64,000 bases of DNA from the NCBI GenBank assembly GCA_963709285.1, contig CAVPVR010000002.1, forward strand, positions 65,491-129,490. The letters run 5' to 3'. The position numbers and the translations under genes were made by a program. The DNA comes from an uncultured delta proteobacterium. GTDB lineage: Bacteria > Desulfobacterota > Desulfobaccia > Desulfobaccales > 0-14-0-80-60-11. The notes beneath the pieces are model-generated. The model was not told the origin of the DNA, ran no database searches, and was given only the letters and a program-made list of their open reading frames with translations. Positions 4,236 to 54,502 of the stretch are shown one piece after another. Each line of letters begins with the position of its first letter. The first letter of the stretch is position 1.

Positions 4236-4248
4236 CCGCCGTGGGTTA

Positions 4249-25906: not shown

Positions 25907-25922
25907 ACTTTGTTTACAAAGT
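25907..25922. promoter_or_regulatory. Perfect palindrome ACTTTGT-TT-ACAAAGT in an AT-rich region
   Basis: 16-bp dyad read directly, about 250 nt upstream of the fwdB-like gene. Its half-site ACTTTG recurs upstream of the Ubl gene. Confidence 0.25.
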
Positions 25923-34323: not shown

Positions 34324-34356
34324 GGGGCCTGACCCGGTTTTGCCGAGTTATTTCCC

Positions 34357-35211
34357 ATGAAAACGTTGGTCCACAAGCGTGAAACCAGAAGCGCCATTGA
34401 ATTGACCCTCCGGATGTACCAGGAGCTGGTAGAGCTGCGCCTGGACAAAACGGCCTGCCTCAAGTGCGAGGTCTGCTCCCTGGTCTGCCCTCGGGGGGCG
34501 GTGGCCGTCACGCCTGCTGACGAGGGCCTGGATATCACCATTGATCCCCGCGTCTGCGTGCTCTGCGAAATTTGCGCCCACTTTTGCCCTACAGGAGCGG
34601 TGAGCTTGAGGCTCAACGGCGTCCCCAAGACTATTTTATTCGACCATCTGGGTCTGGCGGCCTTTTTGGACAAGATCAGGATGGACAAGGAAAGGTGCAC
34701 CGAGCCCTGCCCCCAGGATGAAAAAGGGCAGGAGCACTGGTGCCGGCAGCAGCTGAAGCTGGTGGGAGGCCTGCTCACGGAGTGCCCCAAACACTGCCAC
34801 AAGTGCCTGACTGTGTGCCCCCGTCAGGCCATTGTCCTGGACCCGGAGGGCCTGCACACCATGCCCGAGCCCGACCTGTGCCTGCGCTGCACCCAATGTC
34901 TCTCGGTGTGTGAACAGGAAGCCCTGGCGGTCAACCCCCAGTTCACTGGCGACCTTGACATTGACGACAGCAAGTGCCCGCCGGACTGTATGCTGTGCAT
35001 CGAAGCCTGTCCCGTTAAGGCCATCGTGCGGGAAGGGGAGCGGGTCTACCGGAAGTTAGAAACTTGCAGCTACTGTGGGGTGTGCTACAACATTTGTGAT
35101 TACGAAGCCGTTAGCCTAACCCGGCGGCAGGTGGTGGCCCTCAAGGGGGAATTTTCCCAAGCCTGGGAAGAGGCGGTGAACCGGCTCCTCTCCCGGGAAA
35201 TGGTTCGATAA
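34357..35211 (+). CDS. Polyferredoxin (six 4Fe-4S-type motifs; MvhB/FwdF-like)
   Basis: CLKCEVCSLVCP, CVLCEICAHFCP, CHKCLTVCP, CLRCTQCLSVC, CMLCIEACP, CSYCGVCYNIC. Confidence 0.8.
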   Translation: MKTLVHKRETRSAIELTLRMYQELVELRLDKTACLKCEVCSLVCPRGAVAVTPADEGLDITIDPRVCVLCEICAHFCPTGAVSLRLNGVPKTILFDHLGLAAFLDKIRMDKERCTEPCPQDEKGQEHWCRQQLKLVGGLLTECPKHCHKCLTVCPRQAIVLDPEGLHTMPEPDLCLRCTQCLSVCEQEALAVNPQFTGDLDIDDSKCPPDCMLCIEACPVKAIVREGERVYRKLETCSYCGVCYNICDYEAVSLTRRQVVALKGEFSQAWEEAVNRLLSREMVR

Positions 35212-35235
35212 GTTGCGTTAAGCAAAAAGGCGTTT

Positions 35236-37599
35236 GTGGAACCTGAACTTCGCATCGGCTTATATATCTGTCACTGCGGCCTCAATATCGCCGGGGTCAT
35301 CAGTCCGGAGGCCCTGTCGGTTCAGGGGCAGGGGCTCCCTGAGGTGGCGGTCAGTCGCCATCATTTGTACACCTGCTCCGAAGCCGGCCAAGCCGAGATT
35401 CTGAAAGACATCAAGCACTTTAAGCTTGATCGGGTGGTTATTGCCGCCTGTTCACCCAAGCTTCATGAAGTCACCTTCCGCCGGCTGCTGTCGGAAGCGG
35501 GGCTGAATCCCTACCTGGTGGAAATGGTGAACATCCGGGAGCACTGCGCCTGGGTGCACGCCGGGGAGCCGGAGGCGGCCCAGGAAAAGGCGTTGGAGCT
35601 CATCCGCATGGGGCTAGCCAAGGCGTGTCTGGCGGTCCCCTTGCAAGACCGCCAGGTGCCCATGACCAGGCATGCCCTGGTTATTGGCGGAGGCCCAGCG
35701 GGACTGCGAGCCGCCCTCGATATTGCCCATGCCGGCTACCCCGTAACCCTGGTGGAACGGGAGCCCATCCTAGGGGGCATGGCCAACCGGCTGCATCGCA
35801 CCTTTCCCCGGGGGGAAAGCGCCCTGGCCCTGATCAATCCCCTCATGGCTGCGGTGGCCCTGCATCCCGGCATCCAGGTGCTCACCCAGAGCGAGGTCAC
35901 CGAGGTGAGCGGGCATTTGGGGGAGTTTGCCGTCACGGTGCGGGAGACCCTGCCCCTGGTGGGGGAGGCCTGCGACCGCTGTGGGCACTGTGCTGAGGTC
36001 TGTCCGGTGGTGGTTCCCGATACCGTGGCCGCAGGTCTTGGCACCCGGACTGCCATCTATCTGCCGGCCCCCCATGCTTTTCCCGGCCGCTATGTGGTGG
36101 ATCTGGAGCACTGCGACCGCTGCGGCGAGTGTATAGCTGCCTGTCCCCAGGAGGCCATCAGCCTGGAGGAAGGGGAACGAGAGCATCACCTCACCGTGGG
36201 GAGCATCGTGGTGGCCACGGGCTTCACTCTCTTTGATACGGCGGGGAGCCGCTATGAGAACTGGGCTGACCATCCGGGAGTTGTCACCACGGTGGCCCTG
36301 GAGCGCCTTCTGGCGGGGGCAGGACCCACCCAGGGAAAGGTAAGCCTTGCCGATATTCCAGAAGAGGTGCGGGATGTGGCTTTTCTGCTGTGCGTGGGCT
36401 CCCGGGAGGAGGAGGGCAACCGTTACTGCTCCCGGGTGTGCTGCCCCACGGCCTTGAAGCAGGCCCTGGAGCTGAAAAAACGCCTCCCGGAGGCCCGCAT
36501 TCGTATCTATTACCGGGACATCCGCACCAACAAAAAAGACTGGGAGGCCCTTTACACCGAGGCCCGGGAAGCGGGGGTGCTGTTTTTGCGGGGGCGGGTG
36601 GAGGAAGTAAAAGCCGCCCAAGATGGGGGCCTGCTCATTCGTGCCTTTAACGAGACCTTTCAGGTTCCCACCGAAGACCGGGTGGACCTGGCGGTCCTGG
36701 CCGTGGGCATGGTCCCCGGGAACGGCGCCGCTCTCCGGGAGGTGTTGAAGCTGCCGGTGGGACCGGACGGCTTTTTCATGGAGGCCCACCCCAAGCTCAA
36801 GCCCCTGGAGACGGTGCTGGACGGCATTTTTCTGGCCGGGGCCTGTCAGGGTCCCAAGGACCTGGCCGAATCCTTCACCCAAGGAAGCGGCGCGGCCGCC
36901 AAGGTTCTGGCCCTCTTTGCCCACGAGACCATCACCCTGGACGGCCTGGTGGCCCAGGTGGACCCGGAGGTCTGTGTGGGCTGCGGGGAATGCGCGGCAG
37001 CCTGTCCGTTTCAGGCCATGGAGATGGTGGGGGAGGAAGAAAAGCAGCAGGCCCAGGTAGTTACTGCAGCCTGCAAGGGCTGTGGGGTCTGCGCCGGCGC
37101 CTGTCCTACGGGGGCGGTCATCCCCGCGGGGTTTACGGACGAGATGATCCTGGCTCAGATCGACGAGGCCTTGGCGGAGGCTCCGGAACAGAAAATTTTG
37201 GCCTTTTGCTGCAACTGGTGCTCTTATGCCGGGGCGGACTTCGCCGGGGTGTCGCGGCTGGCCTATCCCCCCCAAGTGCGCATTATCCGAACCATGTGCT
37301 CTGGCAGGATTCACCCCAAGTTTATCCTCCATGCGTTTGAGCGGGGCGCCGGCCAGGTTTTGATCTCCGGTTGCCACCCTCCGGGGGAATGCCATTATAT
37401 TTCTGGAAATCTTAGGGCTCAGGAGCGGGTGGAAAAGCTCCGGCCCAAACTTGCCAAAAAAGGCATCGACCCTTCCCGCCTGCGGCTGGCGTGGGTTTCA
37501 GCCACGGAAGGGAGGGCATTTCAACGGGTCATTGAAGAAATGGCCGCGGCCCTGGAGCCTGAAGAGACGGTCAAACAAGCGAGCGGTCAGGGGAAATGA
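35236..37599 (+). CDS. hdrA: HdrA-like flavoprotein fused to a C-terminal MvhD-like domain
   Basis: LYICHCGLNIAG N-terminal cluster, VIGGGPAGLRAAL FAD motif, CVGSRE, ferredoxin motifs, and a C-terminal ILAFCCNWCSYAGAD...ISGCHPPGECHY (MvhD signature). GTG start. Confidence 0.85.
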   Translation: MEPELRIGLYICHCGLNIAGVISPEALSVQGQGLPEVAVSRHHLYTCSEAGQAEILKDIKHFKLDRVVIAACSPKLHEVTFRRLLSEAGLNPYLVEMVNIREHCAWVHAGEPEAAQEKALELIRMGLAKACLAVPLQDRQVPMTRHALVIGGGPAGLRAALDIAHAGYPVTLVEREPILGGMANRLHRTFPRGESALALINPLMAAVALHPGIQVLTQSEVTEVSGHLGEFAVTVRETLPLVGEACDRCGHCAEVCPVVVPDTVAAGLGTRTAIYLPAPHAFPGRYVVDLEHCDRCGECIAACPQEAISLEEGEREHHLTVGSIVVATGFTLFDTAGSRYENWADHPGVVTTVALERLLAGAGPTQGKVSLADIPEEVRDVAFLLCVGSREEEGNRYCSRVCCPTALKQALELKKRLPEARIRIYYRDIRTNKKDWEALYTEAREAGVLFLRGRVEEVKAAQDGGLLIRAFNETFQVPTEDRVDLAVLAVGMVPGNGAALREVLKLPVGPDGFFMEAHPKLKPLETVLDGIFLAGACQGPKDLAESFTQGSGAAAKVLALFAHETITLDGLVAQVDPEVCVGCGECAAACPFQAMEMVGEEEKQQAQVVTAACKGCGVCAGACPTGAVIPAGFTDEMILAQIDEALAEAPEQKILAFCCNWCSYAGADFAGVSRLAYPPQVRIIRTMCSGRIHPKFILHAFERGAGQVLISGCHPPGECHYISGNLRAQERVEKLRPKLAKKGIDPSRLRLAWVSATEGRAFQRVIEEMAAALEPEETVKQASGQGK

Positions 37600-39218
37600 T
37601 AACCAAGACCCAAGTTCTCTTGTGCGCCTGCCCGGACCTCAAGGTGGAGGTCCAGAACTTGGCCCAACGCCTCTCCCAGGCCGGGCTGAGGGTCGAAGTA
37701 TCCCCGCCTCTCTGCACCCCCGCGGGTTTGGAGGAATGGGGGCCACGCCTGACGGCCGAACCCCGGGAGTGGCTGGTGGCCGCGTGCGGACCGGCACAGC
37801 ATCACGGCCTTTTTCAACGTCTGGCCGGGGATGAACCTCTGGCCATGGTGGATCTCCTAGCCGCAGACGATCTGGAAAGCGCTGTGGCAGCCGTCCTCCT
37901 GGCCCAAAAGGAGGAAATTCGCCTGGTTTCCGCGGGCGCACCCCACAGCCGGGAGGTGCTGGTGGTGGGGGGCGGGGTGGGGGGCTGTCAGGCCGCCCTG
38001 GACCTGGCCAATGCCGGTTTCAAGGTACATCTGGTGGAATCCTCCCTCTCCATCGGTGGCACCATGGCCCAGTTGGACAAGACCTTTCCCACGCTGGACT
38101 GCTCCATCTGCATCCTGGGACCCAAGCTGGTGGAAGCCGCGGCCCACCCCTTGATTGAGCTCCTCACCTTTGCGGAAATCACCGGCATTTCCGGCCAGGC
38201 CGGGCGATTTACGGTGGATGTGACCCTGAAGCCCCGCTATGTGGACATGAGCCGGTGTGTGGGCTGCGGCAGTTGCGTCCAGGTCTGCCCGGTCATTGTT
38301 CCCAGTCGCTGGAACCTGGGGCTCAAGTCCCGCAAGTGCATCCGCATCATTTTTGCGCAGGCGGTGCCCCTTATGGCCACTATCGAAAAAGAATACTGCA
38401 TCGACTGCCAGATGTGCCTTGAGGCCTGTGAACACGGGGCCATTCACCCTTTGTCCCGCCCGGAGGAACGGCGCCTCGAGGTGGGGGCGGTGGTTCTGGC
38501 TACCGGGGCCCGGCCCTTTGACCCGGCCATTCAGAGTGAATACAGTTATGGCCGTCTCCCCGGGGTCCTCACCAACCTGGAGTTCGAGCGCCTGGTGTGC
38601 GCCACCGGTCCTACTCAAGGACATCTCCTGACCCCCGCCGGGCAACCGGTGAAGCGTCTGGCCTTCATCCAGTGTGTGGGCTCCCGGGACCGGCGCTTCC
38701 TGCCCTACTGCTCGGGCTACTGCTGCACTGCGGCCATCAAGCAGGCCATGCTGACCCTGGAGCATGAACCCGACGCCGAGGTCACCATCTTTTTCAACGA
38801 CATCCGCACGTCGGGGAAGGGCTTCGAGGAACTCTATTTGCGGGCCCAAGCCGCGGGAGTGCGCTTTACTAAAGGTCTGCCGGGGCGTATCGAGGCGGGG
38901 GAGGCTGGCAGCCTCATAATCATTTATGAAGATCAGCAAGGCGGCCAGCGGGGCCGTCTGCCCGTGGACCTGGCGGTCCTGTCCGTAGGCCTGACCGCAC
39001 CCCGGGAGGGACTCCCCTTCACAGAGATCGGGCCGGTGCGGGACAACCTGGGATTTTATGACAGCCGGCACCCGATCCTTCATCCCCTGGAGTCCACGGT
39101 GCCGGGAGTCTTTCTGGCCGGCACCGCCCAGGGGCCCCGGGATATTTCTGAAACGGTGTGCACCGGCAGCGGGGTTGCGGCCCGGATCATCAACCTGCTC
39201 AATTCTCTGCCCCAGTAG
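37596..39218 (+). CDS. hdrA: HdrA-like flavoprotein (third paralog, with a distinct N-terminal extension)
   Basis: VVGGGVGGCQAAL, DKTFPTLDCSICIL, CVGCGSCVQVCP and IQCVGSRD motifs. Its start overlaps the upstream stop (ATGA). Confidence 0.8.
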   Translation: MITKTQVLLCACPDLKVEVQNLAQRLSQAGLRVEVSPPLCTPAGLEEWGPRLTAEPREWLVAACGPAQHHGLFQRLAGDEPLAMVDLLAADDLESAVAAVLLAQKEEIRLVSAGAPHSREVLVVGGGVGGCQAALDLANAGFKVHLVESSLSIGGTMAQLDKTFPTLDCSICILGPKLVEAAAHPLIELLTFAEITGISGQAGRFTVDVTLKPRYVDMSRCVGCGSCVQVCPVIVPSRWNLGLKSRKCIRIIFAQAVPLMATIEKEYCIDCQMCLEACEHGAIHPLSRPEERRLEVGAVVLATGARPFDPAIQSEYSYGRLPGVLTNLEFERLVCATGPTQGHLLTPAGQPVKRLAFIQCVGSRDRRFLPYCSGYCCTAAIKQAMLTLEHEPDAEVTIFFNDIRTSGKGFEELYLRAQAAGVRFTKGLPGRIEAGEAGSLIIIYEDQQGGQRGRLPVDLAVLSVGLTAPREGLPFTEIGPVRDNLGFYDSRHPILHPLESTVPGVFLAGTAQGPRDISETVCTGSGVAARIINLLNSLPQ

Positions 39219-39254
39219 AGGGCCTTGCAGACCTTGTGAAATATAGAGATAATA

Positions 39255-39283
39255 ACTTTGAGGACTTTGACAAAAGACTTTGG
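39255..39283 (+). promoter_or_regulatory. Three direct ACTTTG(A/G) repeats upstream of the Ubl-like gene
   Basis: AACTTTGAGGACTTTGACAAAAGACTTTGG read directly. The half-site is the same as in the 25907 palindrome. Function unknown. Confidence 0.25.
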
Positions 39284-39297
39284 AAAGGCGAACTAGC

Positions 39298-39672
39298 ATG
39301 TCGGATATTCAGATAAAACCGGAAGAACAACCGAAAAAATTACAAAAACCCTTGCCCCTGGTCCTGGAGATCATTCCCGGGCAGGCCGGGGAGGGGCTCG
39401 TGGTGGTAATGGAGCCAGGGAGCTACGAGGGCAGCACCCTGAGGGAGCTCTGTGATCAGGCTTTGAGCCGCCCCGACTTCAGCATCGAGGAGCGCCAGAT
39501 TTTAGAGGACATCCAGCGGCAGCTTCAGGGTGGCAAGCTCCTTTGCCAGGGCCGGGACCTCGACGGACCCGCCCAGGTCTTCGGAACCGTTGAGGAGACG
39601 GAAGCCGGGGAGGCTTATCTTTATGTGCCTGTCCGGGCCATCAAGCCTCAGGAGGGGGGCCTCTTCCCTTAA
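39298..39672 (+). CDS. Ubiquitin-like (beta-grasp) protein candidate with C-terminal GG followed by LFP
   Basis: 124 aa from the ATG at 39298, with a GGAAAGG RBS 8 nt upstream. It shows a beta/alpha alternation compatible with a beta-grasp fold, ends ...YLYVPVRAIKPQEGG-LFP, and sits in an operon with E2-like, JAB and E1 genes. Confidence 0.5.
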   Translation: MSDIQIKPEEQPKKLQKPLPLVLEIIPGQAGEGLVVVMEPGSYEGSTLRELCDQALSRPDFSIEERQILEDIQRQLQGGKLLCQGRDLDGPAQVFGTVEETEAGEAYLYVPVRAIKPQEGGLFP

Positions 39673-39675
39673 GGA

Positions 39676-40878
39676 ATGGGAACGGGAGCGGGGATGTGGA
39701 GGTGTTTTGAAGCCGACCTGGAAATCCTGGTGCACCGGGGCCACCTGTACCTTCCCCTGGTTTTAGATCCAGAGATCAACCAGGAGATTCAGGCCCCGAT
39801 TTCCCCAAGTTATTCGTGGGATCAATCGCCCGGCGGGCTCAGCCGTTCACCGGTGCCTACGGTCCTGGCTGTCCTGGATAGATGGTTCGTCCAGGCGGTG
39901 AGCGCTTCCTCCCTGGTTGACAACTACGCCCAGCTTTTTCCCCAAGACCACGAAGACCGCCGGCGGACTCTCCGTGAACAATACTCTCTGACCGCGGACC
40001 TCTTTGGGGTGGCCCTGGACCCCCACCTGGTCGCCATCGTTTTTCACATTTTACCCCATTTTCTCAGGCGGGATGGATTTCAGAGACGGCGGCGCTTACA
40101 GGAGGGGGAGGTCCTGGATTTCATCCGGGAGCGAGTCCAGGTGCCCCACTACTTCGACCAACAAGCGCGGAGTTTCCTGGATGTCAATCCTCTGAAGGAG
40201 GCCCTCCGGCGCCTGGAAACCGTTCATCTTGAGCCCAAACCACCTCCAGAGGGATTGGTGCCGGCAGCCGATCTGGGGGCCTGGTGGGAGGAGGTCCTAA
40301 CAGCCCAACTTCTGGCCGAGGAGCGCAACCGCCTCTTCCAGGAGATCGAGGAACGGGAGCACTGGGCCACGGCTCAGGAAAGTCGTCTGGCGGTTCTGCT
40401 CTATTTAGCTCAAAAAGGGTCCCTGGAACTGGACGGCTTCGGGTTCTCCCGGATGAGGCGGGGCCAGGATTACCGGGTTTACAAGCGCACCGGGCCCTAT
40501 GCCCTCCAGGACTTTTATGGCCATTTGTACCTCTTCCCGGATTGCCGGGTGGCGGTCACCACTTTGGGGCGCCTGCGGCCCGTGGTGGTGGATCACTATA
40601 AGCACCCGTTCCTGAGAAGGTACGCTTCTGGCCAGGAAATCTGCATAGGTCCCGAAAGCAGTAATCTTTCTTTTTCGGCAAAAAACGCCATCCAGGTCCT
40701 GGAGGAAGGGATCAACGCGCTCTTGTACAGCTACGACGGCCGGCACCGCGCCGGCTACCACAGACTGTTTGTGCTGCCGGGGATGATGCGACTGGTGGAC
40801 TTCGAAGACATTCGCATCCCGAAGGACCACCCCCTCATCGTCTCAGGGAAAGTGGAAGTGAAGAACCGGGCCACCTGA
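39676..40878 (+). CDS. E2/UBC-like protein candidate with a large N-terminal extension
   Basis: The C-terminal region YLFPDCRVAVTTLGRLRPVVVDHYKHPFLRRYASGQEICIGPES...AIQVLEEGINALLY mirrors the UBC layout (FP..., HPN-like HPF, G-x-x-I-C-[LI], following helix). The candidate catalytic Cys323 codon is at 40642-40644. Confidence 0.45.
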   Translation: MGTGAGMWRCFEADLEILVHRGHLYLPLVLDPEINQEIQAPISPSYSWDQSPGGLSRSPVPTVLAVLDRWFVQAVSASSLVDNYAQLFPQDHEDRRRTLREQYSLTADLFGVALDPHLVAIVFHILPHFLRRDGFQRRRRLQEGEVLDFIRERVQVPHYFDQQARSFLDVNPLKEALRRLETVHLEPKPPPEGLVPAADLGAWWEEVLTAQLLAEERNRLFQEIEEREHWATAQESRLAVLLYLAQKGSLELDGFGFSRMRRGQDYRVYKRTGPYALQDFYGHLYLFPDCRVAVTTLGRLRPVVVDHYKHPFLRRYASGQEICIGPESSNLSFSAKNAIQVLEEGINALLYSYDGRHRAGYHRLFVLPGMMRLVDFEDIRIPKDHPLIVSGKVEVKNRAT

Positions 40879-40879
40879 C

Positions 40880-41287
40880 ATGGACCTTAAGGACTCTTTT
40901 CGCCGGGACCGGCTTCGGGGGAAGGAGAAGGAGCCCTGGGCCCCCTCCCTGTTCTCTCAGGTCGGAGGGCTGGTGCGGCGTCATCGACTGGGAGAGGCAT
41001 TTTGTCAGCTTCTCGGGCAGATGACTACGGCAAGTGCGGAAACCTTAGCGCAGACCCACCGATCTGCTCCCAAGGCCCCTTTCGAGCCACCCCTGTTTTT
41101 TTTGGCCACCGCAGAGGATTATCAGGTGATTCAGAAAATTCTCTCGGGCCTAAACAACCCCTACCTGGCTTGGGCCTGCAGTCCGGAGGAAATTCTTCTG
41201 TCGCCAACCCTGTGGAGCCGGCGTCCCGGCCTTGACCCAGAGGTGCTGGCCACCCACCACTTTGCGGCGTTGCTTTTACATGATTAA
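40880..41287 (+). CDS. Hypothetical protein of the Ubl operon
   Basis: 135-aa ORF starting 1 nt after the upstream stop. No family recognised. Confidence 0.5.
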
Positions 41288-41289
41288 AT

Positions 41290-41340
41290 TTGAGAGGAGG
41301 GCTGGGGGAGCGCGGCTCCCCCACTCTCCCCCCAAAAAAC
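41290..41340. repeat. G/C-tract hairpin repeat copy
   Basis: GAGAGGAGGGCTGGGGGAGCGCGGCTCCCCCACTCTCCCCCC is palindromic and lies between the 135-aa gene and the clpX-like gene. Confidence 0.5.
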
Positions 41341-41364
41341 CTGTTCACATCACAAGGAGTACTC

Positions 41365-42468
41365 ATGCCGAATGGCATAACTGATGAGAAGCGGCGGCGC
41401 CTCGAAGAAAAGATGGAGCAGTTTCGGGAACGTCAGATAGACGAGGCGGTGCAGCACATCCTTGAATTCGACAAGACTCCTACGACCCTGAAGGCCGAAG
41501 TGGACCGGTTCGTCATCGGCCAGGAGAAGGGGAAAAAGATTATCGCCACGGCCATCGCGTTCCATTATAAGCGGCTGGGTGCCGCGTTGAAGCGCACCTT
41601 GGGAGAACACAACGGCAGCATCGAGAGCGCCCTCAAGAGCACCCGTACCCCCAAGGCCAACATCCTCATGGTGGGTCCCACCGGGTGCGGCAAGACCTAC
41701 ACCAGCGAGACCGCCTCGGAGCTGGTGGGGGTGCCCTTCGTGGTAGAGGACATGACCAAGTTCAGCGAGGTGGGCTACGTGGGCATGAATGTCAGCGACA
41801 TCCTGGTGGACCTCCTCATCTCCGGAGACGGCAACCCGAATGTGGCCCAGATGGGTATCGTCTACCTGGACGAAGTTGACAAGATTGCCGCCGAGACCTC
41901 CACCGTCCGGGATGTTTCGGGGAAGGGAGTCCAGAAGGGTCTTCTCAAGCTGGTGGAGGGGGTGGACAACACCCTGGAGATCGGCAAGGAGCGTTTCTCT
42001 CTTTCCACCAAGCACGTGCTGTTTATTGCCGGGGGGGCTTACGACAGCCTGGAAGGCATCGTCAGGAAGCGCCTGGCCCGCCTGAATGTGACGGGCGACT
42101 GGCGGGACCACCTGGCCACCGAGGACCTGGTTTCCTTCGGTATGGAGCGCCAGCTTGTGGGCCGCTTCCCGGTCCGGGTGGTGTATGATCGCCTCACCAC
42201 CCAGGAACTCCAGGACATCCTGACCAAGAGCGCCGACAGTCCCCTCCGGGCTTACGTCCAGGACCTGGAAAGCTGGGGCATCGACCTGAAATACACCGAG
42301 GAGGCCCTGGGGGAGATCGCCCGCCGGGCCAAGCGGGAGGGCACCGGGGCCCGGGGACTGGTGGGCATCCTCCACCGGGTGCTGCTCGAGGACATGTTCC
42401 GCCTACCCGGCAACTACACGGGAGAGCTCATGATGGACGGAGCCTACATCCGGGAGAAACTGGGATGA
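41365..42468 (+). CDS. ClpX-like AAA+ unfoldase lacking the Zn-ribbon, RKH and IGF (ClpP-docking) elements
   Basis: VIGQEKGKK, Walker A GPTGCGKT, pore loop GYVG, Walker [30 protein letters not shown], and sensor region GARGL. There is no N-terminal C4 domain and no GIGF motif. A CAAGGAG RBS precedes the ATG at 41365. Confidence 0.85.
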
Positions 42469-43262
42469 GGTTCAAGGCCCTCAAGGACCTGAGCCGGACG
42501 GCGCCCCAGGAGATTGTGCTGGCCTCTCTCCCGGAGCAGGTCCTGATGACGGACTTTGCCAAAGCCAAGGCCTTTGCGGTGAGTGAACTGGTGCGCCGGG
42601 TGCATGGGGAGGCGTTCGAGTGGTACGGCTTCACCCTGGCGGAGCGGGCCCGGCCGGAGGTCATCGTGGATGTGGGGCTTCCCGAAAACGACGAGAACCA
42701 GGAGACTTACACCAGCATCAGCCCGGAACGTATTGCAGCTTACCAGGAAACCCTACCGGCCGGGCAGATAATCAACGGCTGGCTCCACTCCCACGGCGCT
42801 CTGGAGTACCGTCAGTTCTCCCCGGTGGACGACCTCAACCAGGCGACGGTGCTGGACTACGTCACTTCCCTGCTCAAGATGCCCGTGGCCAAAAAGGAGG
42901 TGGTGATCCGGGATTTGACCTTCCTGTTGTTGGATGAGGAGGAGGCCGCAATCCAGGCCGCAGGCAGCGTCACCCTCCTCACCGATGTGCCGGTGGGCCG
43001 GGCCAAACTCCTGGAGACCATTTATGGGGGCTTCTGCTTCGGCATGGTCATCGGTGACAAAGGCTGGACCAAACAGGAGATCCATTACAAAACCCGGGGC
43101 GTCCTCACCGGCGAGACCCTGGTGAGCAAACGGGAAGCCGACCTGACCCTGGTGGCAACCGGGAAAAACCTCACGACCTCGGACCTGGAGGCCCTGGAAC
43201 TGGAGGTCAAGGAACGTATCCGACCCATTACCTATACCCCGGAAAAGCTGGAGCGGGGGTAG
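42465..43262 (+). CDS. JAB/MPN+ (JAMM) metalloprotease-like protein
   Basis: Upstream Glu (GEAFEWYGF) and [18 protein letters not shown] (H-x-H-x8-S-x2-D, one residue longer than the canonical x7), encoded at 42786-42830. Its start overlaps the clpX-like stop (ATGA). Confidence 0.7.
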
Positions 43263-43432
43263 GGGGAAAGGCAAATTAAAGTATCACTGGAATGTTGGGG
43301 TTGATTTGGTAATTGCATTTTTTTCTTTTCCCATATCTAAAAAGAATTTTTATATCTAATTTATTCTTTTAGATTTTGTTTAGATAGTTAAAATATACTA
43401 GAAGTTACTAAAAAGATGATGGTACTAACTTC

Positions 43433-44431
43433 ATGATTGAGTCTTGCGTATGGCGCCGCCTTTGTCGTCCCGAGGTTGGGATTCCGAACTCGATAAGTGA
43501 TCTGATTGCCCGGGAAGAATGGCTGAAAGGGGATTTTTTAACTTCCGTACGTATGGGGCCAACACTATTTATAGCGAGTGATTATGGTGGAGCGCACAAG
43601 GGTGCTGTATATGAGACCCTCTCGTTTCTCATGGCCGACTTGACATATGTTTGGTTATTTGACGAATTGCGTACAAAGCTACGCAATGAAGCGGTTCTAA
43701 AAAGTCGCCGTATGGCATACAAATCTTTAGGCGACCGTCGGAGACAAGAAGCACTTGTGCCGTTTCTTCGATCGGGTAACACGATCCCGGGACTTCTAAT
43801 GAATATTGTATTAGATAAAAACGCCTCCCAATTACTTTCAGAATCCTATCAACCTAAATTTGCCTTTGGCGAACTTAGCCATTGGTGTAAAGGGTCCTTT
43901 GAAAAACTCACGCGCGTTGGACAACTGGGAGCGATGCTTGTTGAGGGAATGTGCGCTCCAGGTCAGAATGTATTATGGATTTCTGACGAAGATGAGATAG
44001 CGCCAAACAGAGAGAAGTTGTTTGAGGCAACTAACGTTTTAGGCCATTACCTGAATCATTTCTGTTCTAATCAGATGGGGCACATGAGATTTGGAACTAC
44101 AAACGTGGACAATGGCAACCTCCGAATTGAAGATCTTGTCGCGCTCGTTGATCTTGCAGCTGGATGCCTCTCGGAGATCTTTACGCAAACGATGAAACTG
44201 TTTGGAAGCCCTGCAAGCAAAATCCTTATACCTGGGACGCACTCGTCATCTAAGAAAGCAAGAATTATTGCAAATTGGATGGCCCAGGGTAATCATCCTC
44301 TGAAGAAGCTAATCGTGTTGGTTGAAGCTCAAAATAATTCTTATATCACGAAAGTCGTAAACTTTTATCCAGAAGGCACAACAAACATTTTCGACTGGGT
44401 AGCCGATTTCGAGGAGTTGCTCAGAAATTGA
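43433..44431 (+). CDS. Hypothetical protein on a low-GC insertion
   Basis: 332-aa ORF, visibly AT-richer than its neighbours and preceded by a 170-bp AT-rich spacer. No family recognised. Confidence 0.6.
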   Translation: MIESCVWRRLCRPEVGIPNSISDLIAREEWLKGDFLTSVRMGPTLFIASDYGGAHKGAVYETLSFLMADLTYVWLFDELRTKLRNEAVLKSRRMAYKSLGDRRRQEALVPFLRSGNTIPGLLMNIVLDKNASQLLSESYQPKFAFGELSHWCKGSFEKLTRVGQLGAMLVEGMCAPGQNVLWISDEDEIAPNREKLFEATNVLGHYLNHFCSNQMGHMRFGTTNVDNGNLRIEDLVALVDLAAGCLSEIFTQTMKLFGSPASKILIPGTHSSSKKARIIANWMAQGNHPLKKLIVLVEAQNNSYITKVVNFYPEGTTNIFDWVADFEELLRN

Positions 44432-44497
44432 CTACTTCTAACTCTTTGAATTGTTTGACGTTTTAATATGTTAGCATCTTAGCGTTAGAATGTGAGT

Positions 44498-44728
44498 ATG
44501 AAGAATTCACCGAAACGAGCCACCATCTACTTCGAATCCGACCTGCACCGGGCCTTACGGGTGAAGGCGGCGGAGGTGGGCCAGTCGATGTCCGAACTGG
44601 TCAATCAGGCGGTGAAGCTTTCCTTGGCCGAGGACGCTAAGGATATAGCGGCCTTCGAGGAGCGCCAGCACGAACCCAGCCTGCCCTTTGAGGACGTCCT
44701 GAAAGACCTCAAGATAGGGAAGGGCTGA
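44498..44728 (+). CDS. Ribbon-helix-helix (CopG/antitoxin-like) protein, orphan
   Basis: KRATIYFESDLHRALRVKAAEVGQSMSELVNQAV is a typical RHH beta-strand plus two helices. No adjacent toxin ORF is seen. Confidence 0.7.
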   Translation: MKNSPKRATIYFESDLHRALRVKAAEVGQSMSELVNQAVKLSLAEDAKDIAAFEERQHEPSLPFEDVLKDLKIGKG

Positions 44729-44734
44729 GAGCAA

Positions 44735-44820
44735 GTCCCCCTTTGACAAAGGGGGATTTAGGGGGATTTTCGAGGGGTCAGGAAAAATCCCCTGACCCCC
44801 CTTTATTAAAGGGGGGGATT
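44735..44820. repeat. Family A nested-palindrome element, copy 2 (inverted)
   Basis: Its reverse complement aligns with 45058-45140 and 29466-29549 (…CCCCCTAAATCCCCCTTTgtcAAAGGGGGAC). Confidence 0.8.
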
Positions 44821-44852
44821 TTAAGCATAGGATATGCTAAGGAGCATTAAGG

Positions 44853-45041
44853 ATGGCAGAGCATTGGTGTAAAACCTGCTTTTTCAGAGGCCAATATGAC
44901 AAAAACCCCCAGTCATTGTTGGGGAGATTGTGGAAATGGCATGCCAACTGGTGCCCGGGCTGGAAATCCTACATGAGATCCATCCCGGATGAGGAACGCC
45001 TGGAATTAGCCGAAAAATATGATTTACCCAAATTCAGGTGA
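44853..45041 (+). CDS. Hypothetical small CxxC protein
   Basis: 62 aa reading MAEHWCKTCFFRG...WCPGW, with an AAGGAG RBS upstream. It is bracketed by inverted family A repeats. Confidence 0.45.
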   Translation: MAEHWCKTCFFRGQYDKNPQSLLGRLWKWHANWCPGWKSYMRSIPDEERLELAEKYDLPKFR

Positions 45042-45057
45042 AGCGACTGCCTATTTA

Positions 45058-45140
45058 CCCCCCTTTCTTAAAGGGGGGGTAGGGGGGATTATGTAAGGCT
45101 TTGATAATCCACCTAAATCCCCCTTTAGAAAAGGGGGACT
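45058..45140. repeat. Family A nested-palindrome element, copy 3
   Basis: Near-identical to 29466-29549 in the same orientation. Confidence 0.8.
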
Positions 45141-45218
45141 TTCAAAGTTCAATCCTGAAGTGACTCAGATAATGAGCCTGGTAATTCATGGAACACTACA
45201 TTAGCTGACTAAACCATT

Positions 45219-46721
45219 GTGACCTTGCCTGAAAACACCTATTTATCCCGGGATGAAGCAACTCCGGACGAGCGCCTGGACCGGCAGGTGCGCATTCCGG
45301 GGTGGAACCAGGAGGCGTTGGCCCAGGCCCGGGTGGGGGTGGTGGGAGACGACCCCTGGCTCACTGGCCTGGTGGTGACTTCGGCTGCGGCCCTGGGAAT
45401 CAACCGGCTGACGGTGGTGGCCCCGGACCTGGACCCCCGCTTGCTCTCGGCGACCCGGGGGCTTAATCCGGAGTTCAACCTTGCCTGGTTCCCAGGCTTT
45501 TTCAGCCATTCCCTCCTGGAGGACCTGCTCCGGGAATGCACCGTCCTGATTGACCTGGGCCACCACGGCCTGGCCACCAAGCTCCTCCTCAATCTGGCCC
45601 AAAGGAAAGGTCTCCCCCTGGTGCGGGCGTCTGACTTTGAGGAGGATGGGGTGGCGGGCCTCAGGCTCTTCACCTATCAGCCAGGCCGGGAATGGCGGGA
45701 ACTCCTGGAAGTGCTTCCTCAAGCCCAACTTCCTTCCCGGTGTCAGGGCGACCCGGTGCTGGCTCTGGTCACGGTGGGGCTGGTTCTCGAGGAAACCAAA
45801 AAGCTCCTCCTGGGGGAGGCGGTAACACCGGAGGTGATCTCATACTCTCGGGCCAGCTTAAAGACATTTAATTTGAGGGAGAGGGCTAGGGGCCGTGAGC
45901 CCCTACCCCCTCCCTCAAACTCCCTCCCCCAACCCCTTAAGGGGGAGAGAAATGCTGTAAAGTCGGGGCAAGCTGCCCCGACTTTACAAGCACATTGCGG
46001 GATGGGAGGGGGGCTTGATGGGAAGAAAGGGACCGGTAGCATGGGCTTCCAGCCCGTGGCACCCTGGCCTTACCCTCATGAGCTCATTTTTCTGGATTCC
46101 CCCATCGCGGTGGTGGGCGCCGGGGCCCTGGGGAACTTTGTGGCGTTGGGGTTGGCCGCTCTGGGCTTCACCCGCCTCACCTTTATCGATCCGGACCCGG
46201 TGGAGGTCACCAATCTGAACCGTCAGGTTCTCTTCTGGGACGCCGTGGGACAGCCCAAGGCCGAGGCGTTAGCAGAAAAAATCAAGGAGTGGTTCGGGGT
46301 GGCGGTCAGGGCTGACACGACATACATCACCCGGGAGACTGACTTGCGCGAGTTTGCCGTGGTGTTCGACTGCACGGACAATTTTGCCAGCCGCATTATC
46401 CTGAGCGAAAAGTGCCGGGAATATGGCCAAATCCTCATCAGCGGCGGCACCGGGGTGGAGGCCGGACAGGTAGTGGTCTTCGACCCCGCGCAAGGCGGCC
46501 CCACCCCCGCAGAGCTTCTGGGGCTTTATGACATCGTGGGACAGCGTGACATCGACGTCAAAGAGCGGGAACGGGCCTCCTGCGTCTATGCCCCTGAAGC
46601 CGCCATAATCATGACCAACCAGATCGTCGGGGGCCTTATGGTGGACACCCTGAGAAGACTGCTTACGGGAGAGCCGGCACCCAACCTCTTCTACGACGCC
46701 CGGAGTGAAAGGATGATTTAG
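45219..46721 (+). CDS. E1-like (ThiF/MoeB/UBA family) activating enzyme with a degenerate N-terminal and an intact C-terminal adenylation domain
   Basis: The C-terminal half, IAVVGAGALGNFVALGLAALGFTRLTFIDPDPVEVTNLNRQVLF...FDCTDNFASR, is a classic ThiF fold. The N-terminal half has a Rossmann-like layout but a degenerate loop (VGVVGDDPWLTG). GTG start. Confidence 0.8.
   Translation: MTLPENTYLSRDEATPDERLDRQVRIPGWNQEALAQARVGVVGDDPWLTGLVVTSAAALGINRLTVVAPDLDPRLLSATRGLNPEFNLAWFPGFFSHSLLEDLLRECTVLIDLGHHGLATKLLLNLAQRKGLPLVRASDFEEDGVAGLRLFTYQPGREWRELLEVLPQAQLPSRCQGDPVLALVTVGLVLEETKKLLLGEAVTPEVISYSRASLKTFNLRERARGREPLPPPSNSLPQPLKGERNAVKSGQAAPTLQAHCGMGGGLDGKKGTGSMGFQPVAPWPYPHELIFLDSPIAVVGAGALGNFVALGLAALGFTRLTFIDPDPVEVTNLNRQVLFWDAVGQPKAEALAEKIKEWFGVAVRADTTYITRETDLREFAVVFDCTDNFASRIILSEKCREYGQILISGGTGVEAGQVVVFDPAQGGPTPAELLGLYDIVGQRDIDVKERERASCVYAPEAAIIMTNQIVGGLMVDTLRRLLTGEPAPNLFYDARSERMI
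45873..46062. repeat. G/C-tract hairpin repeat modules inserted in frame inside the E1 gene
   Basis: TTGAGGGAGAGGGCTAGGGGCCGTGAGCCCCTACCCCCTCCCTCAAACTCCCTCCCCCAACCCCTTAA matches the intergenic element at 57548-57616. It also contains the hairpin AAAGTCGGGGCAagcTGCCCCGACTTT and a GGCTTCCAGCCCGTGGCAC motif. Confidence 0.7.
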
Positions 46722-50917: not shown

Positions 50918-52291
50918 ATGGATACCATTCTGGTAGTAGACGACGAAATTAATTACCTCACGGTCATGGAGACTCTCTTGGGGGAGGAGGGCTACGAGGT
51001 GCTCACCGCCCCTGGGGGCCCGGAGGCCCTGAAGATCGCGGGTGGCAGTGATCTGGACCTGGTGCTCACCGACATGAAAATGCCCAAGATGAACGGTATC
51101 GAGCTGTTGGCAGAGATGAAACGCCTCTATCCAGACCTGCCGGTTATTATGATGACCGCCTACGGCACCGTGGAAAAAGCGGTGGAGGCCATGAAGACGG
51201 GGGCCTTTGACTACGTCTTGAAGCCCTTTAAAAATGAAGAGCTCCTGATGACCATCGCCAAAGGCCTGGAACACTACCGCCTCATCCTGCAAAACCGCAT
51301 GCTCCTCCAGGAGCTGGATAAAAAGTACGGCGCCCCTAACATTGTGGGGGAAAGTATGGCCATGCGGGAGATCTTGGCCCTGGTAAAGCGGGTGGCCACC
51401 TCCCGGGCCACCGTGCTCATCAGTGGAGAAAGTGGCACCGGCAAGGAATTAGTGGCCCGGGCCATCCACCAGCAAAGCCCCCGGGCAGGCAAGACCTTTG
51501 TTTCGGTGAATTGCGCCGCCCTGACGGAGACGCTCCTGGAAAGCGAGCTCTTCGGTCACGAGCGGGGGGCCTTTACCCACGCGGTGGTCATGCGCAAGGG
51601 CCGCTTCGAGCTGGCCGACGGCGGGACGCTCTTTCTAGACGAAGTGGCGGAGATGTCCCCGGCTCTCCAGGTCAAATTGCTGCGCGTCCTGCAGGAAATG
51701 GAATTCGAGCGGGTGGGGGGCAACAAGACCATCAAGGTGGACGTCCGGGTGGTGGCCGCCACCAACCGGGAACTCAAGGAAGAGGTGGAAGACGGCCGGT
51801 TTCGGGAGGATTTGTACTACCGCCTGAACGTGGTGCATCTGCACATTCCGTCCCTGCGTGAGCGTCAGGAGGACATTACCCCCTTAGCCACCCACTTCCT
51901 GAAAAAATACGCTCAGGAAAACGCCCGGGGTGAGGTGCACCTTTCCCCAGAGGCCATGAAGCTTCTCATCCAGTATGCCTGGCCGGGCAACGTCCGGGAG
52001 CTGGAAAACGTTATGGAGCGGGCGGTAATCCTGTGCAACCAAAGCCTCATTACCGTCAACGACCTCCCCGGGGAGCTGGCCGGCGAGCCCCGGGAGTCCT
52101 CCCGGCTCAATATCGACCGCTTTATTCCCTTACAGACACCCCTTCCTGAAGTTCTAGAACAGATCGAGGAGCAGATGATCCGCCGAGCCCTGGAGCAAAG
52201 CGGCCAGGTGCAGGTCCGAGCTGCCGAGCTTTTGGGCATCACCAAGAGTCTGTTGCAGTACAAGCTGAAAAAATATCATCTTACGGTGTGA
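50918..52291 (+). CDS. Sigma-54-dependent NtrC-type response regulator
   Basis: Receiver domain (LVLTDMKMP), AAA+ GESGTGKE, ESELFGHERGAFTHA, and a C-terminal Fis-type HTH. Confidence 0.9.
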   Translation: MDTILVVDDEINYLTVMETLLGEEGYEVLTAPGGPEALKIAGGSDLDLVLTDMKMPKMNGIELLAEMKRLYPDLPVIMMTAYGTVEKAVEAMKTGAFDYVLKPFKNEELLMTIAKGLEHYRLILQNRMLLQELDKKYGAPNIVGESMAMREILALVKRVATSRATVLISGESGTGKELVARAIHQQSPRAGKTFVSVNCAALTETLLESELFGHERGAFTHAVVMRKGRFELADGGTLFLDEVAEMSPALQVKLLRVLQEMEFERVGGNKTIKVDVRVVAATNRELKEEVEDGRFREDLYYRLNVVHLHIPSLRERQEDITPLATHFLKKYAQENARGEVHLSPEAMKLLIQYAWPGNVRELENVMERAVILCNQSLITVNDLPGELAGEPRESSRLNIDRFIPLQTPLPEVLEQIEEQMIRRALEQSGQVQVRAAELLGITKSLLQYKLKKYHLTV

Positions 52292-52330
52292 TCCTGTAAT
52301 GAACTAGAGTTATTGCATGCCGAATAGATA

Positions 52331-52354
52331 TTTTTTCAATTTAGATTGAAAAAA
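52331..52354. promoter_or_regulatory. Perfect AT palindrome TTTTTTCAAT-ttag-ATTGAAAAAA
   Basis: Read directly. It lies between the ntrC-like stop and the DUF433 gene, and could be an operator or a weak bidirectional terminator. Confidence 0.3.
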
Positions 52355-52385
52355 TCCTTAGGGCTTGGGTGATAAGGTAATACAA

Positions 52386-52637
52386 ATGGAAATCCGCCAT
52401 TACAAATTCCCTCGCATTACGTTGAATCCTGAAATGTGTTTCGGCAAGCCCTGTATTCGTGGGCTGAGAATTCCAGTGGCAACTATTCTCAACTACTTGG
52501 GTTCAGGGATGACTATAGAGGAGATCTTGAGGGAATGGCCTGAACTGGAAAAAGAGGACATTCATCAGGCTCTCGGCTATGCAGCCTGGGCTATGGAAGA
52601 GAGAGTGGTGTCTTTGGAAGAAACAAGAGCCCCATGA
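52386..52637 (+). CDS. DUF433 antitoxin-like protein
   Basis: [49 protein letters not shown] is the characteristic DUF433 core. Its stop overlaps the next start. Confidence 0.75.
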
Positions 52638-52999
52638 AATTCCTCCTAAACATGAACCTTCCTCGTTCCTTGGGGAAGAGCCTGGAGGGAGTGGGGCATG
52701 AATGCCGTCATGCAGGGGATATAGGCTTATCCCAGGCGATGGACATTGATATCATGACTGAGGCTGGAAGAAGGAAAGAAATCATCCTTACGCATGACCT
52801 AGATTACGGTCACCTACTAGCGTTTTCCGGAGATACGGCCCCTTCTGTGGTCATTTTTCGTTTGCGGAATAGCCACCCTGACAGGCTCTTTGCCCGCCTA
52901 CTAGCAGTTTGGCAGGAAATTGACAAGCCCTTGCAGGAAGGGTCAATTGTTATTTTAGAAGACACAGCAGTAAGGATTCGGAGATTACCCATTTCCTAA
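52634..52999 (+). CDS. DUF5615 (PIN-like/Mut7-C-like) toxin candidate
   Basis: [10 protein letters not shown]...[12 protein letters not shown] pattern, the usual partner of DUF433. 4-nt overlap (ATGA). Confidence 0.7.
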
Positions 53000-53035
53000 A
53001 AAAATAACCGAGTAACTTTTCCCCAGGGAGCCGCC

Positions 53036-54502
53036 TTGAAAAGTTCTGAATTTCCTCAAGATATTCAGGAACATCTCATCCCTACCCCCACCGGGGACAT
53101 GGTGTACCGCTGCCTGGAGTGCGCGGCTGAGTTTGACATCACTGAACTCCTGTACACCTGCCCGGAGTGCAAGGGGCTCTTTTTATTGATAGACCGCAAC
53201 GAGGGGCGTCTTCAGGAAAGGTCCGGGGCCTTCTGGCGGCGGCTGTTCGACTACCGGCGGATGCTGAATGTCCCGGCCCTTCAGGGGATTTTCCTCTACT
53301 ATGAGCTCATCGCACCGGTGATTCCCCTGGACCAGATCATCTACCTGGGGGAAGGCCATACCCCCCAGGTGGCGGCCAATGACGACCTGGCCGGCGAGGT
53401 GGGGGCGGCCTTTTATTTTAAAAACGACGGCCAGAACCCCAGCGCCTCCTTCAAGGACCGGGGCATGGCCGCGGCCCTGAGCTACCTGAATTTTCTGGTT
53501 AACTCCCGCAATCTCGGGAAAATTCTGTCCATCTGCGCCAGCACCGGGGACACCTCCGCGGCCGCGGCCCTGTATGGGGCCTACCTGGGGGACAAAGTCG
53601 CGTCGGCGGTGATTCTCCCCCACGGCAAGGTGACGCCCCAGCAGTTGGCCCAGCCATTGGGGGCCGGGGCCCGGGTGTTGGAAATTCCCGGGGTTTTCGA
53701 CGACTGTATGCAGGTGGTGGAGGCCCTGGCGGACAACTACCAGGTGGCCCTGCTCAACTCCAAGAACTCCTGGCGCATCCGGGGGCAGGAGTCTTACGCC
53801 TTCGAAATCGCCCAGTGGTTCGACTATGATCTCACCGGCAAGGCCGTGGTGGTGCCCATCGGCAACGCCGGCAACATCACCGCGGTCATGCAGGGATTTT
53901 TAAGACTCCACGATCTCGGGATCGTCGAAAGCCTTCCCCGGGTGGTGGGGGTGCAGTCCCGCCACGCCAACCCGGTATTTCGCTATTACCTTGAACCTGA
54001 CCGGGCCCAGCGCGTCTTTATGCCGGTGACGGTAACGCCCAGCGTGGCCCAGGCCGCCATGATCGGCAACCCGGTCAGCATGCCCCGGGTCATCCGGCTG
54101 GTGGAGGAGTACCGCCGTCGGGCCGGGGAGGGGAGCGTGGCTGTGGTGGAGGTGACCGAACAGGAGATCATGGACAGCATGATCCTGGCCAACCGTCACG
54201 GCCATATCGCCTGCACCCAGGGGGGCGAGTCCCTGGCGGGCCTCCGAGCAGGGGTGGCGGCAGGCCTTTTGGACCAGGGTGAACTGGCGGTCCTGGACGC
54301 CACCGCCCACCACCTCAAGTTTGTGGGGTTTCAGGAGATGTATTTCGAAAACACCTTTCCCCCGGAATTCGAGGTGACCCCGAAGGCGGCCTATCAGAAC
54401 CGGCCCCAGCTCCTCACCCCGAAGAGTGGGGACCCGGCCCAGAAAGTTTCCGAATTAGCCGACCAGATCGCCCAGCTGCTAAGGTTAACTCCTAAAAACT
54501 AA
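53036..54502 (+). CDS. thrC: Threonine synthase (long form with N-terminal Zn-ribbon)
   Basis: CLECAAEF...CPECKG ribbon and the PLP-lysine motif NPSASFKDRG. TTG start with an AGGGAG RBS. Confidence 0.9.
   Translation: MKSSEFPQDIQEHLIPTPTGDMVYRCLECAAEFDITELLYTCPECKGLFLLIDRNEGRLQERSGAFWRRLFDYRRMLNVPALQGIFLYYELIAPVIPLDQIIYLGEGHTPQVAANDDLAGEVGAAFYFKNDGQNPSASFKDRGMAAALSYLNFLVNSRNLGKILSICASTGDTSAAAALYGAYLGDKVASAVILPHGKVTPQQLAQPLGAGARVLEIPGVFDDCMQVVEALADNYQVALLNSKNSWRIRGQESYAFEIAQWFDYDLTGKAVVVPIGNAGNITAVMQGFLRLHDLGIVESLPRVVGVQSRHANPVFRYYLEPDRAQRVFMPVTVTPSVAQAAMIGNPVSMPRVIRLVEEYRRRAGEGSVAVVEVTEQEIMDSMILANRHGHIACTQGGESLAGLRAGVAAGLLDQGELAVLDATAHHLKFVGFQEMYFENTFPPEFEVTPKAAYQNRPQLLTPKSGDPAQKVSELADQIAQLLRLTPKN

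Follow-up and report, generated by a model that had tools for sequence, protein, structure and literature searches.

A variable cargo slot between the JAB and E1 genes of a Desulfobacterota operon, and the predicted RNase H-like protein that occupies it

The window analyzed here, a 64-kb stretch of DNA (64,000 nt) from an uncultured delta proteobacterium, carries an operon (37596–46721) encoding, in order, an HdrA-like protein, a 130-amino acid (aa) putative ubiquitin-like protein (Ubl), two proteins of 400 and 135 aa, a ClpX-like AAA+ protein, a JAB/JAMM-like peptidase, a 62-aa CxxC protein and an E1 protein. The DNA between the JAB and E1 genes is probably not a single island, but has built up through three events within an operon that was inherited vertically and that gained a putative 332-aa conflict nuclease independent of Ubl, JAB and E1. 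The spacer extending from the JAB stop codon to the promoter of a parD-type gene, which encodes a ribbon-helix-helix (RHH) protein, is a recurrent landing site, and behaves as a variable cargo slot. All the elements named in a sequence-only reading of the region 43263–45218, which had described it as a low-GC cargo island splitting the operon, are found in place in the sequence and in the map of open reading frames (ORFs). GC3 denotes GC content at third codon positions.

42465–43262, plus strand: JAB/JAMM-like peptidase gene, left conserved flank of the slot
43263–43432 (170 nt): AT-rich spacer after the JAB stop codon, GC 0.265
43270–44446, plus strand: foreign single-gene cassette of ~1.18 kb, made of an AT-rich leader, the 332-aa gene and a short trailer
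43433–44431, plus strand: 332-aa ORF, GC 0.448, GC3 0.432, predicted RNase H-like fold
44447–44491, plus strand: parD promoter/operator region, point where homology to relatives restarts
44492–44728, plus strand: RHH ORF, orphan ParD-type antitoxin gene, weak RHH matches in Pfam
44733–44816, no strand assigned: palindromic repeat copy 1, at the position of parE in loci L005 and L017
44853–45041, plus strand: 62-aa CxxC...H..WC ORF, native operon gene paired with E1
45058–45141, no strand assigned: palindromic repeat copy 2, inverted relative to copy 1
45219–46721, plus strand: E1 (ThiF-family) gene, GTG start, Pfam ThiF match at 8.6e-39, right conserved flank

A sliding-window analysis, one of the checks proposed in the sequence-only reading, places the lowest 1-kb GC of the entire window (0.426) in the JAB-E1 stretch, where GC content falls from ~0.62 to 0.39–0.47. 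The remainder of the window has a mean GC of 0.589 (standard deviation 0.038), corresponding to z about −3 to −4 for 1-kb windows, and the drop is not due to chance. As that reading had noticed, composition switches right after the JAB stop, and an AT-richer gene of unassigned family follows the spacer. GC3 measures 0.43 in the 332-aa gene, 0.77 in the RHH gene, 0.59 in the CxxC gene, and 0.65–0.82 in the operon genes, or 0.71–0.82 in those set against the cassette. Composition had been thought to remain low up to E1. This holds for the cassette, and for a second dip made by the repeats and the CxxC gene (GC 0.47), but not for the RHH gene, which has native composition (GC 0.58); the low-GC zone is therefore not uniform up to E1.

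Related loci were gathered from three sources. Species-representative genomes scanned with the JAB protein yielded four syntenic loci (L004 to L007) in metagenome-assembled genomes of Syntrophobacterales, Desulfobaccales and Desulfobacterales. Metagenomes yielded loci L014 to L019, and a look-up of one CxxC homologue three near-identical Desulfobacca-like contigs (L026–28). All were compared by tblastn with the complete set of window proteins and by ORF maps; L016 and L018 are too short to be called. Gene orders are as follows.

L026–28: JAB, 106 nt, CxxC, 16 nt, E1
L017: JAB, parD, parE, CxxC (frameshifted), E1
L005: JAB, 242-aa gene, parD, parE, CxxC, E1
L006: JAB, parD, CxxC, E1
L004: JAB, N-terminally truncated parD, CxxC, E1
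L007: JAB, 268-aa gene, N-terminally truncated parD, CxxC; the contig ends before E1
Window: JAB, 332-aa gene, parD, CxxC, E1
L014: directly after JAB, a low-GC stretch (0.435) that codes for a Schlafen/AlbA_2 protein (Pfam, 7.8e-16)
L015: after JAB, an AT-rich leader (0.26), then the beginning of a further gene

Conserved flanks thus enclose accessory content which differs among relatives, as in a variable hotspot. Other cargo genes, unrelated and of low GC, reside in the slot in four loci (L005, L007, L014, L015), and none in six (L004, L006, L017, L026–28), which bears out the variable cargo slot envisaged as an alternative in the sequence-only reading. In the synteny comparison called for in that reading, only the CxxC gene separates JAB and E1 in L026–28, where the JAB-CxxC spacer contains no parD remnant. 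The 332-aa gene is missing from all the related loci that could be read by tblastn. Cargo GC3 is low also elsewhere (0.38 in L005 and 0.25 in L007 vs 0.82 for JAB), and all cargo genes lie on the operon strand. The SLFN_AlbA_2 protein of L014 is the sole cargo assigned to a named family. The L007 268-aa protein has a weak DUF4145 match (E 0.01), and an R-x4-H motif noted by eye only. A first impression of the L005 242-aa protein as a nucleotide cyclase has been dropped, having no support in Pfam, NCBIfam or PADLOC, and none of the four cargo proteins matches PADLOC.

The junctions of the insert are sharp. Homology to relatives stops within ~15 nt of the JAB stop (~43270) and restarts at 44447, immediately before the parD promoter; the foreign cassette therefore corresponds to ~43270–44446. 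Secondary insertion of foreign DNA into a pre-existing operon, as originally proposed, stands for this cassette, but not for the whole 43263–45218 stretch. Neither target-site duplications nor motifs common to the cassette ends were seen in the window, L005, L007, L014 and L015. Since L004, L006, L017 and L026–28 lack cargo, the operon works without it.

The RHH and CxxC genes had been placed in the cargo island. The identity of the former as an orphan antitoxin holds, but both are conserved in relatives and are to be viewed as residents; a conserved position with native composition, which had been named as grounds for abandoning the island, is found for these two genes, and not for the 332-aa gene. 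RHH orthologues are 62–76% identical in L005, L006 and L017, and truncated remnants occur in L004 and L007. This divergence resembles that of the flanking genes (JAB 73–85%, E1 61–70%). The presence of the gene in loci lacking the 332-aa gene, along with its native composition, argues for a resident rather than cargo, and orthology identifies it as an orphan parD antitoxin gene, left over from an old parDE module. The true start is probably ATG 44498 (76 aa) rather than the listed GTG 44492, to judge from the orthologues and from an independent gene call. A ParE toxin gene lies downstream of parD only in L005 (86 aa, Pfam 1.9e-12) and L017 (79% identical to the L005 copy), and partly overlaps parD in both. 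No ParE, intact or remnant, was detected by tblastn in the window, which accordingly lacks a ParDE pair. A sigma-70-like site upstream of the RHH gene (44463–44491) corresponds in the alignment to TTGACG-17-TATAAT in L017 and to TTGACG-17-TAAAAT in L005, and 'tcttagcg' repeats are common to these regions. The parD gene may have been kept as promoter or regulator for the downstream CxxC and E1 genes.

The CxxC gene was found in L004, L005, L006, L007, L017 and L026–28, directly upstream of E1 in all eight loci reaching that far; it therefore belongs to the operon as a native member and is not cargo. Identity to the window copy is 66–77% in L004 to L007, and 56% in L017. Residues C6, C9, H30 and C34 are invariant in five aligned copies, in a pattern of the zinc-binding type, and GC3 of the orthologues (0.52–0.70) is similar to the 0.59 of the window copy. 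The family is large (1753 clusters), and members are sometimes mis-named 'IS1 family transposase'. In L017 (4249–4433) the gene is apparently frameshifted, as tblastn matches residues 6–62 and the ORF diverges after ~20 codons, which points to a pseudogene or else to an error in the assembly. A 66-aa homologue without any E1 resides in Ignavibacteriae (L029, 5378–6201; L030, 269–1092), after a 194-aa gene of no named family; AbiEii, SEFIR/TIR and RhuM genes belong to the same island.

The two palindromic repeats seen in the sequence-only reading are indeed present. The element measures ~85 nt, and copies 1 and 2, mutually inverted, show 76% complementarity. A third is located at ~29466–29536, where 0.01–0.1 matches are expected by chance, and the same element is found in the CxxC-E1 spacer of L005.

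The 332-aa ORF contains both motifs quoted in the sequence-only reading. The protein has no match in Pfam, NCBIfam, PADLOC or PHROGs, and the family profile gave chance matches only against PDB sequences. Relatives are nevertheless numerous: a word-indexed search found 57 at 90% clustering, none with a name or a Pfam domain, and an exhaustive profile search (E≤1e-3) retrieved 1405 cluster representatives at 50% identity. No Pfam domain was detected in 107 members checked, nor in five with extensions or fusions, including a 619-aa protein. In an alignment of 51 members D50 (in S-D-Y-G-G), R84, R92, Q178, W182, D185 and D187 (in D-E-D-E), N192, E233, D234, D240 and K275 are invariant; the window gene is intact and retains them all.

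Remote homology and structure searches, recommended in the sequence-only reading, found no sequence family but a fold. The AlphaFold2 (AF2) model built with the family alignment has high confidence scores (pLDDT 90.9, pTM 0.91), and the order of its elements, beta1-beta2-beta3-alpha-beta4-alpha-beta5-alpha, is that of the RNase H-like fold. Strands (E) and helices (H) assigned by DSSP are E44–52, E60–69, E120–128, H153–173, E179–184, H193–210, E218–222 and H231–257. D50 is modeled at the end of beta1, D185 and D187 just after beta4, and E233, D234 and D240 in the helix after beta5; the model thus features the five-stranded mixed sheet, with carboxylates at catalytic positions, typical of the RNase H-like superfamily. 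Archaeal RNase HII proteins are the top Foldseek matches in PDB (E 6e-4 to 2e-3, probability 0.99–1.0), followed by RNase HIII, the RNase H of retroviral reverse transcriptases, Argonaute and EndoV. The top match among the viral proteins of BFVD is a DUF3800 protein (E 3e-6, probability 1.0). PF12686 is matched neither by the window protein nor by any of the 51 family members, even at E≤1, and a profile search of a set of 5.8 billion proteins at E≤10, meant to bridge the two families, yielded no Pfam domain. Since the family matches neither PF12686 nor any other Pfam entry, the predicted link to DUF3800 is structural only. On the model, the 332-aa proteins are best regarded as a family of their own within the RNase H-like superfamily, with DUF3800 and RNase HII as the nearest shapes.

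RNA elements were sought around the gene. Rfam gave chance-level matches only at window positions 42900–45400 (E≤10), and nothing in 6 family loci or, at gathering threshold, on 10 loci. Shuffled sequence folds as well as the leader does (z +0.5), and no conserved segment in common was found when the flanks of 10 family loci were compared by blastn. No reverse transcriptase, CRISPR array or RNA motif of the DUF3800 type lies near the 332-aa gene, and the protein does not match the retron VII models of PADLOC. A six-codon mini-ORF (ATG ATG GTA CTA ACT TCA TGA; 43415–43435) overlaps the start codon of the 332-aa gene at an ATGA, which could reflect translational coupling or chance; no obvious Shine-Dalgarno sequence precedes that start.

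Twelve genomic contexts of the family outside the window have been inspected, and Ubl, E1 and JAB genes are absent from all. No homologue was found in a phage collection. The family gene is solitary between housekeeping genes in L001/2 and L021/22, alone in a Bacillus megaplasmid (L034), adjacent to helicase and deaminase genes in Mycobacteroides abscessus (L003), and flanked by lexA and the reverse transcriptase of a group II intron in L008. Mobile DNA adjoins others: an IS200/605 transposase gene in L023/24, a large serine recombinase and a relaxase in L025, insertion sequences and a DUF4238 gene in a Paraburkholderia plasmid (L035). A type IIG restriction-modification gene lies near the L012 copy. 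In five distant taxa, the two Rhizobiaceae plasmids pSymA and pAt counting as one, the gene directly adjoins TcmP (TIGR04474) and a three-Cys partner, which is either DUF5131/rSAM-mobile-pair-A-like (also termed DUF5131/Gp37-Gp68-like) or SPL-like.

L009–11, peat metagenome: 1421–4524 in L009
L013, Bipolaricaulota: 3684–6972
L012, Kribbella: 3754–6972
L025, Actinoplanes: 5001–8060
L032, S. meliloti pSymA: 3700–7855
L033, Agrobacterium pAt: 1737–5864

On pSymA the TcmP block is located between an 845-aa DEAD/DEAH Hna-like helicase and a GapS1-family protein; on pAt, it lies beside a DEAD/DEAH Hna-like helicase and is followed by a CHAT-domain protein. The 845-aa helicase, which is Hna-like and may be Hna itself, adjoins the TcmP gene, as do the Hna defence gene SMa2245 and SMa2243 listed in PMC12445080. 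The 332-aa family, TcmP and the three-Cys DUF5131/SPL-like protein may together constitute a three-gene system, as yet undescribed, for defence or DNA modification, and in that case the window would hold its solo nuclease. Four tblastn queries found no TcmP or partner gene in the 64-kb window, where the three-gene neighborhood does not occur.

By its fold, the contexts of its family and the analogy with DUF3800, the 332-aa protein is most plausibly a putative metal-dependent nuclease in a genetic-conflict role, directed against phages or mobile elements. By parsimony, the ancestral order would have been that persisting in the Desulfobacca-like contigs, in which ClpX-like, JAB, CxxC and E1 genes follow one another with short spacers. 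A parDE type II cassette with its own promoter would then have entered the JAB-CxxC spacer in an ancestor of the lineage to which the window belongs, creating a non-essential, separately promoted gap. The cassette would have decayed differently by lineage, and the window would have lost parE, having an 85-nt palindromic repeat in its place. Single low-GC, co-oriented foreign genes would have been acquired repeatedly and separately by various lineages, immediately before the parD promoter; the occupant seen in the window, predicted to be an RNase H-fold protein with the full set of conserved carboxylates, would be carried as a hitchhiker.

Several observations weigh against this reconstruction. 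The order of events is drawn from 11 loci without a species tree, and parDE may instead have been lost in the Desulfobacca-like lineage. No attC-like site or recombinase was seen at the cargo insertions. Four or five cargo genes are all co-oriented with the operon at one precise spacer, a uniformity which, together with the lack of a predicted terminator after JAB, might, with low probability, mean functional coupling to the operon or dependence on its transcription. The lack of PADLOC matches leaves the 332-aa protein without a direct tie to a validated defence system. The first catalytic position is D-Y, vs D-E in RNase HII and DUF3800, and the predicted active site may have a different arrangement or catalyze some other phosphoryl transfer.

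That the 332-aa protein might be an effector, as one alternative of the sequence-only reading had it, was considered in the wider form of interchangeable effectors of the Ubl/ClpX/JAB/E1 system, the core sensing or regulating and the variable gene executing, as in systems of the CBASS (cyclic oligonucleotide-based antiphage signaling system) type. At least four different cargo genes, all co-oriented, occupy exactly the same spacer, two of them with a fold or domain of the nucleic acid-targeting type (RNase H-like, SLFN_AlbA_2), and no terminator was found by scanning between JAB and cargo. Such a role is nevertheless unlikely, as six loci (L004, L006, L017, L026–28) are cargo-free, the cargo is strongly foreign in composition within a native, syntenic, housekeeping-like operon, and the 12 other contexts of the family lack Ubl, E1 and JAB genes. 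It is also rather unlikely, taken as a joint claim, that the post-JAB spacer is a dedicated, orientation-constrained cassette slot coupling the Ubl/ClpX-like/JAB/E1 machine to interchangeable nucleic acid-targeting effectors, via read-through expression or Ubl-dependent control; if it were, this type of immune architecture would be one for which Bil, Bub and type II CBASS operons offer no described precedent. The other alternative of that reading, an unrelated hitchhiker, is favored: the protein is most likely a hitchhiking conflict-system nuclease, and not an effector of the Ubl pathway.

The insertion of single genes in one orientation, always at the junction that immediately follows the JAB stop, also recalls a site-specific, integron-like capture of promoterless cassettes expressed by read-through of the operon, and no sigma-70-like promoter is predicted in the 170-nt leader. 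AT-rich leaders could, however, hold promoters overlooked by a simple scan, no integrase is found among the proteins scanned at 39.3–47.7 kb, the trailer (~15 nt) is too short for an attC site, and the cassette ends of the five occupied loci have no common motif; capture of this kind is quite improbable. The 332-aa and RHH genes are adjacent, co-oriented and 60 nt apart, and toxin-antitoxin modules with the toxin gene first exist, so the two genes might be viewed as a functional pair acquired together, RHH being antitoxin or repressor. This has been rejected as very improbable, being largely refuted by the parD orthology of the RHH gene, which is matched in the parDE pairs of L005 and L017, by composition (GC3 0.77 vs 0.43), and by the junction, homology to relatives restarting upstream of RHH's own promoter. 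The RHH gene moreover occurs in loci without the 332-aa gene, and no small RHH neighbor recurs beside other family members. Hardly credible is a native 332-aa gene with low GC imposed by its own constraints rather than by horizontal transfer, for which only the intactness of the gene and the retention of the family-invariant residues can be adduced; the gene is absent from all related loci, its GC3 is ~0.3 below that of its neighbors, its nearest homologue is just 59–62% identical and comes from unrelated contexts, and homologues elsewhere have the composition of their hosts (0.57 in both L001 and L003).

The host operon is conserved in synteny in at least eight Desulfobacterota loci (window, L004, L005, L006, L017, L026–28). 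Located between HdrA-like and PGI genes, with native composition and identities of 79–90% for the ClpX-like protein, which is encoded by the gene preceding JAB, and 73–85% for JAB (L004 to L007), it resembles a housekeeping locus. E1 orthologues are 61–70% identical in L004 to L006 and L017. The 400-aa and 135-aa proteins match no family. The JAB assignment derives from the motif alone: E52, H108-S-H110, S119 and D122, a JAMM-type pattern, are invariant in five orthologues. No Pfam match was found for this protein, its profile gave chance matches only against PDB sequences, and a single-sequence AF2 model is uninformative (pLDDT 30).

Other features of the window are worth recording. Several more HdrA-like paralogues, 36–57% identical to the gene at 37596–39218, lie just upstream of the operon (30866–36918). 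A c-di-GMP-I riboswitch aptamer is found at 4357–4442 on the plus strand (Rfam RF01051, 68.3 bits, E 3e-11). Two more stretches, at ~25000–26170 and ~52000–53300, have low 1-kb GC (0.47–0.49); the former contains no convincing ORF over ~1.1 kb, no tandem repeats and no Rfam match.

For anyone studying this operon it matters that the operon proper (Ubl, ClpX, JAB, CxxC, E1) can be separated from later additions, namely the repeats, what remains of the antitoxin module, and the 332-aa gene. The slot provides a clean natural example of an intra-operon hotspot, which a toxin-antitoxin insertion apparently opened and which at least five alternative genes have occupied. The most useful results are that the limits of the foreign DNA have been corrected, that the CxxC gene can be assigned to the operon, and that there is a lead in an unannotated RNase H-like family of ~1400 clusters, found beside the TcmP/DUF5131 pair and validated defence genes of pSymA. 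The 332-aa family is a testable candidate for a new conflict-system nuclease. What is new is a sizeable unannotated family; its superfamily and the type of hotspot are already known.

Compared with RNase HII and HIII, the modeled 332-aa protein has the same fold and strand order, with carboxylates likewise placed at beta1, at beta4 and in the C-terminal helix. It differs in a helical insertion of ~50 residues that separates beta2 from beta3, and in a beta-hairpin domain added at the C terminus; template modeling scores are 0.44–0.52 on target and 0.31–0.37 on query, and identity is 8–14%. In contrast to RNase HII and HIII, its gene is accessory and patchily distributed, not housekeeping. DUF3800 has been described as an RNase H2-like domain, of unknown activity, that accompanies the reverse transcriptases of type VII retrons, to which it is linked or fused (PMC7736814). 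It is also found joined to TPR repeats next to certain Cas12a2 genes (PMC10910872), and eleven unexplained RNA motifs are linked to it (PMC5737381); RNase HII has been reported as its best PDB match as well (PMC7736814, PMC10910872). Both families would feature an RNase H2-like fold, and members of both are encoded by accessory genes that stand alone in conflict contexts. DUF3800 motifs are an N-terminal DE and a C-terminal QxxD (PMC7736814), whereas the 332-aa family features S-D50-Y51-G-G, with a nearly invariant Y and thus D-Y instead of D-E, and E233-D234-x5-D240-L-A-A-G, with no conserved Q and an invariant D240.

As in ParDE modules, the RHH antitoxin gene has its own promoter and operator repeats, but in the window the toxin is missing, a palindromic repeat is found in its place, and the antitoxin gene is intact with native composition. 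Conserved flanks, a different accessory gene in each genome, a toxin-antitoxin module alongside and foreign composition are traits common to the slot and to defence islands and hotspots. The slot differs in lying within an operon, in accommodating one gene at a time in strict co-orientation, in having no recombinase or tRNA gene nearby, and in that no cargo matches PADLOC. Homologues of the 332-aa gene reside elsewhere beside the TcmP/three-Cys 'mobile pair', whereas the window copy is solitary. Published Bil and Bub operons have no AAA+ unfoldase (10.1101/2024.11.21.623966); the window operon differs from them in pairing an unfoldase with a JAMM peptidase, Ubl and E1.

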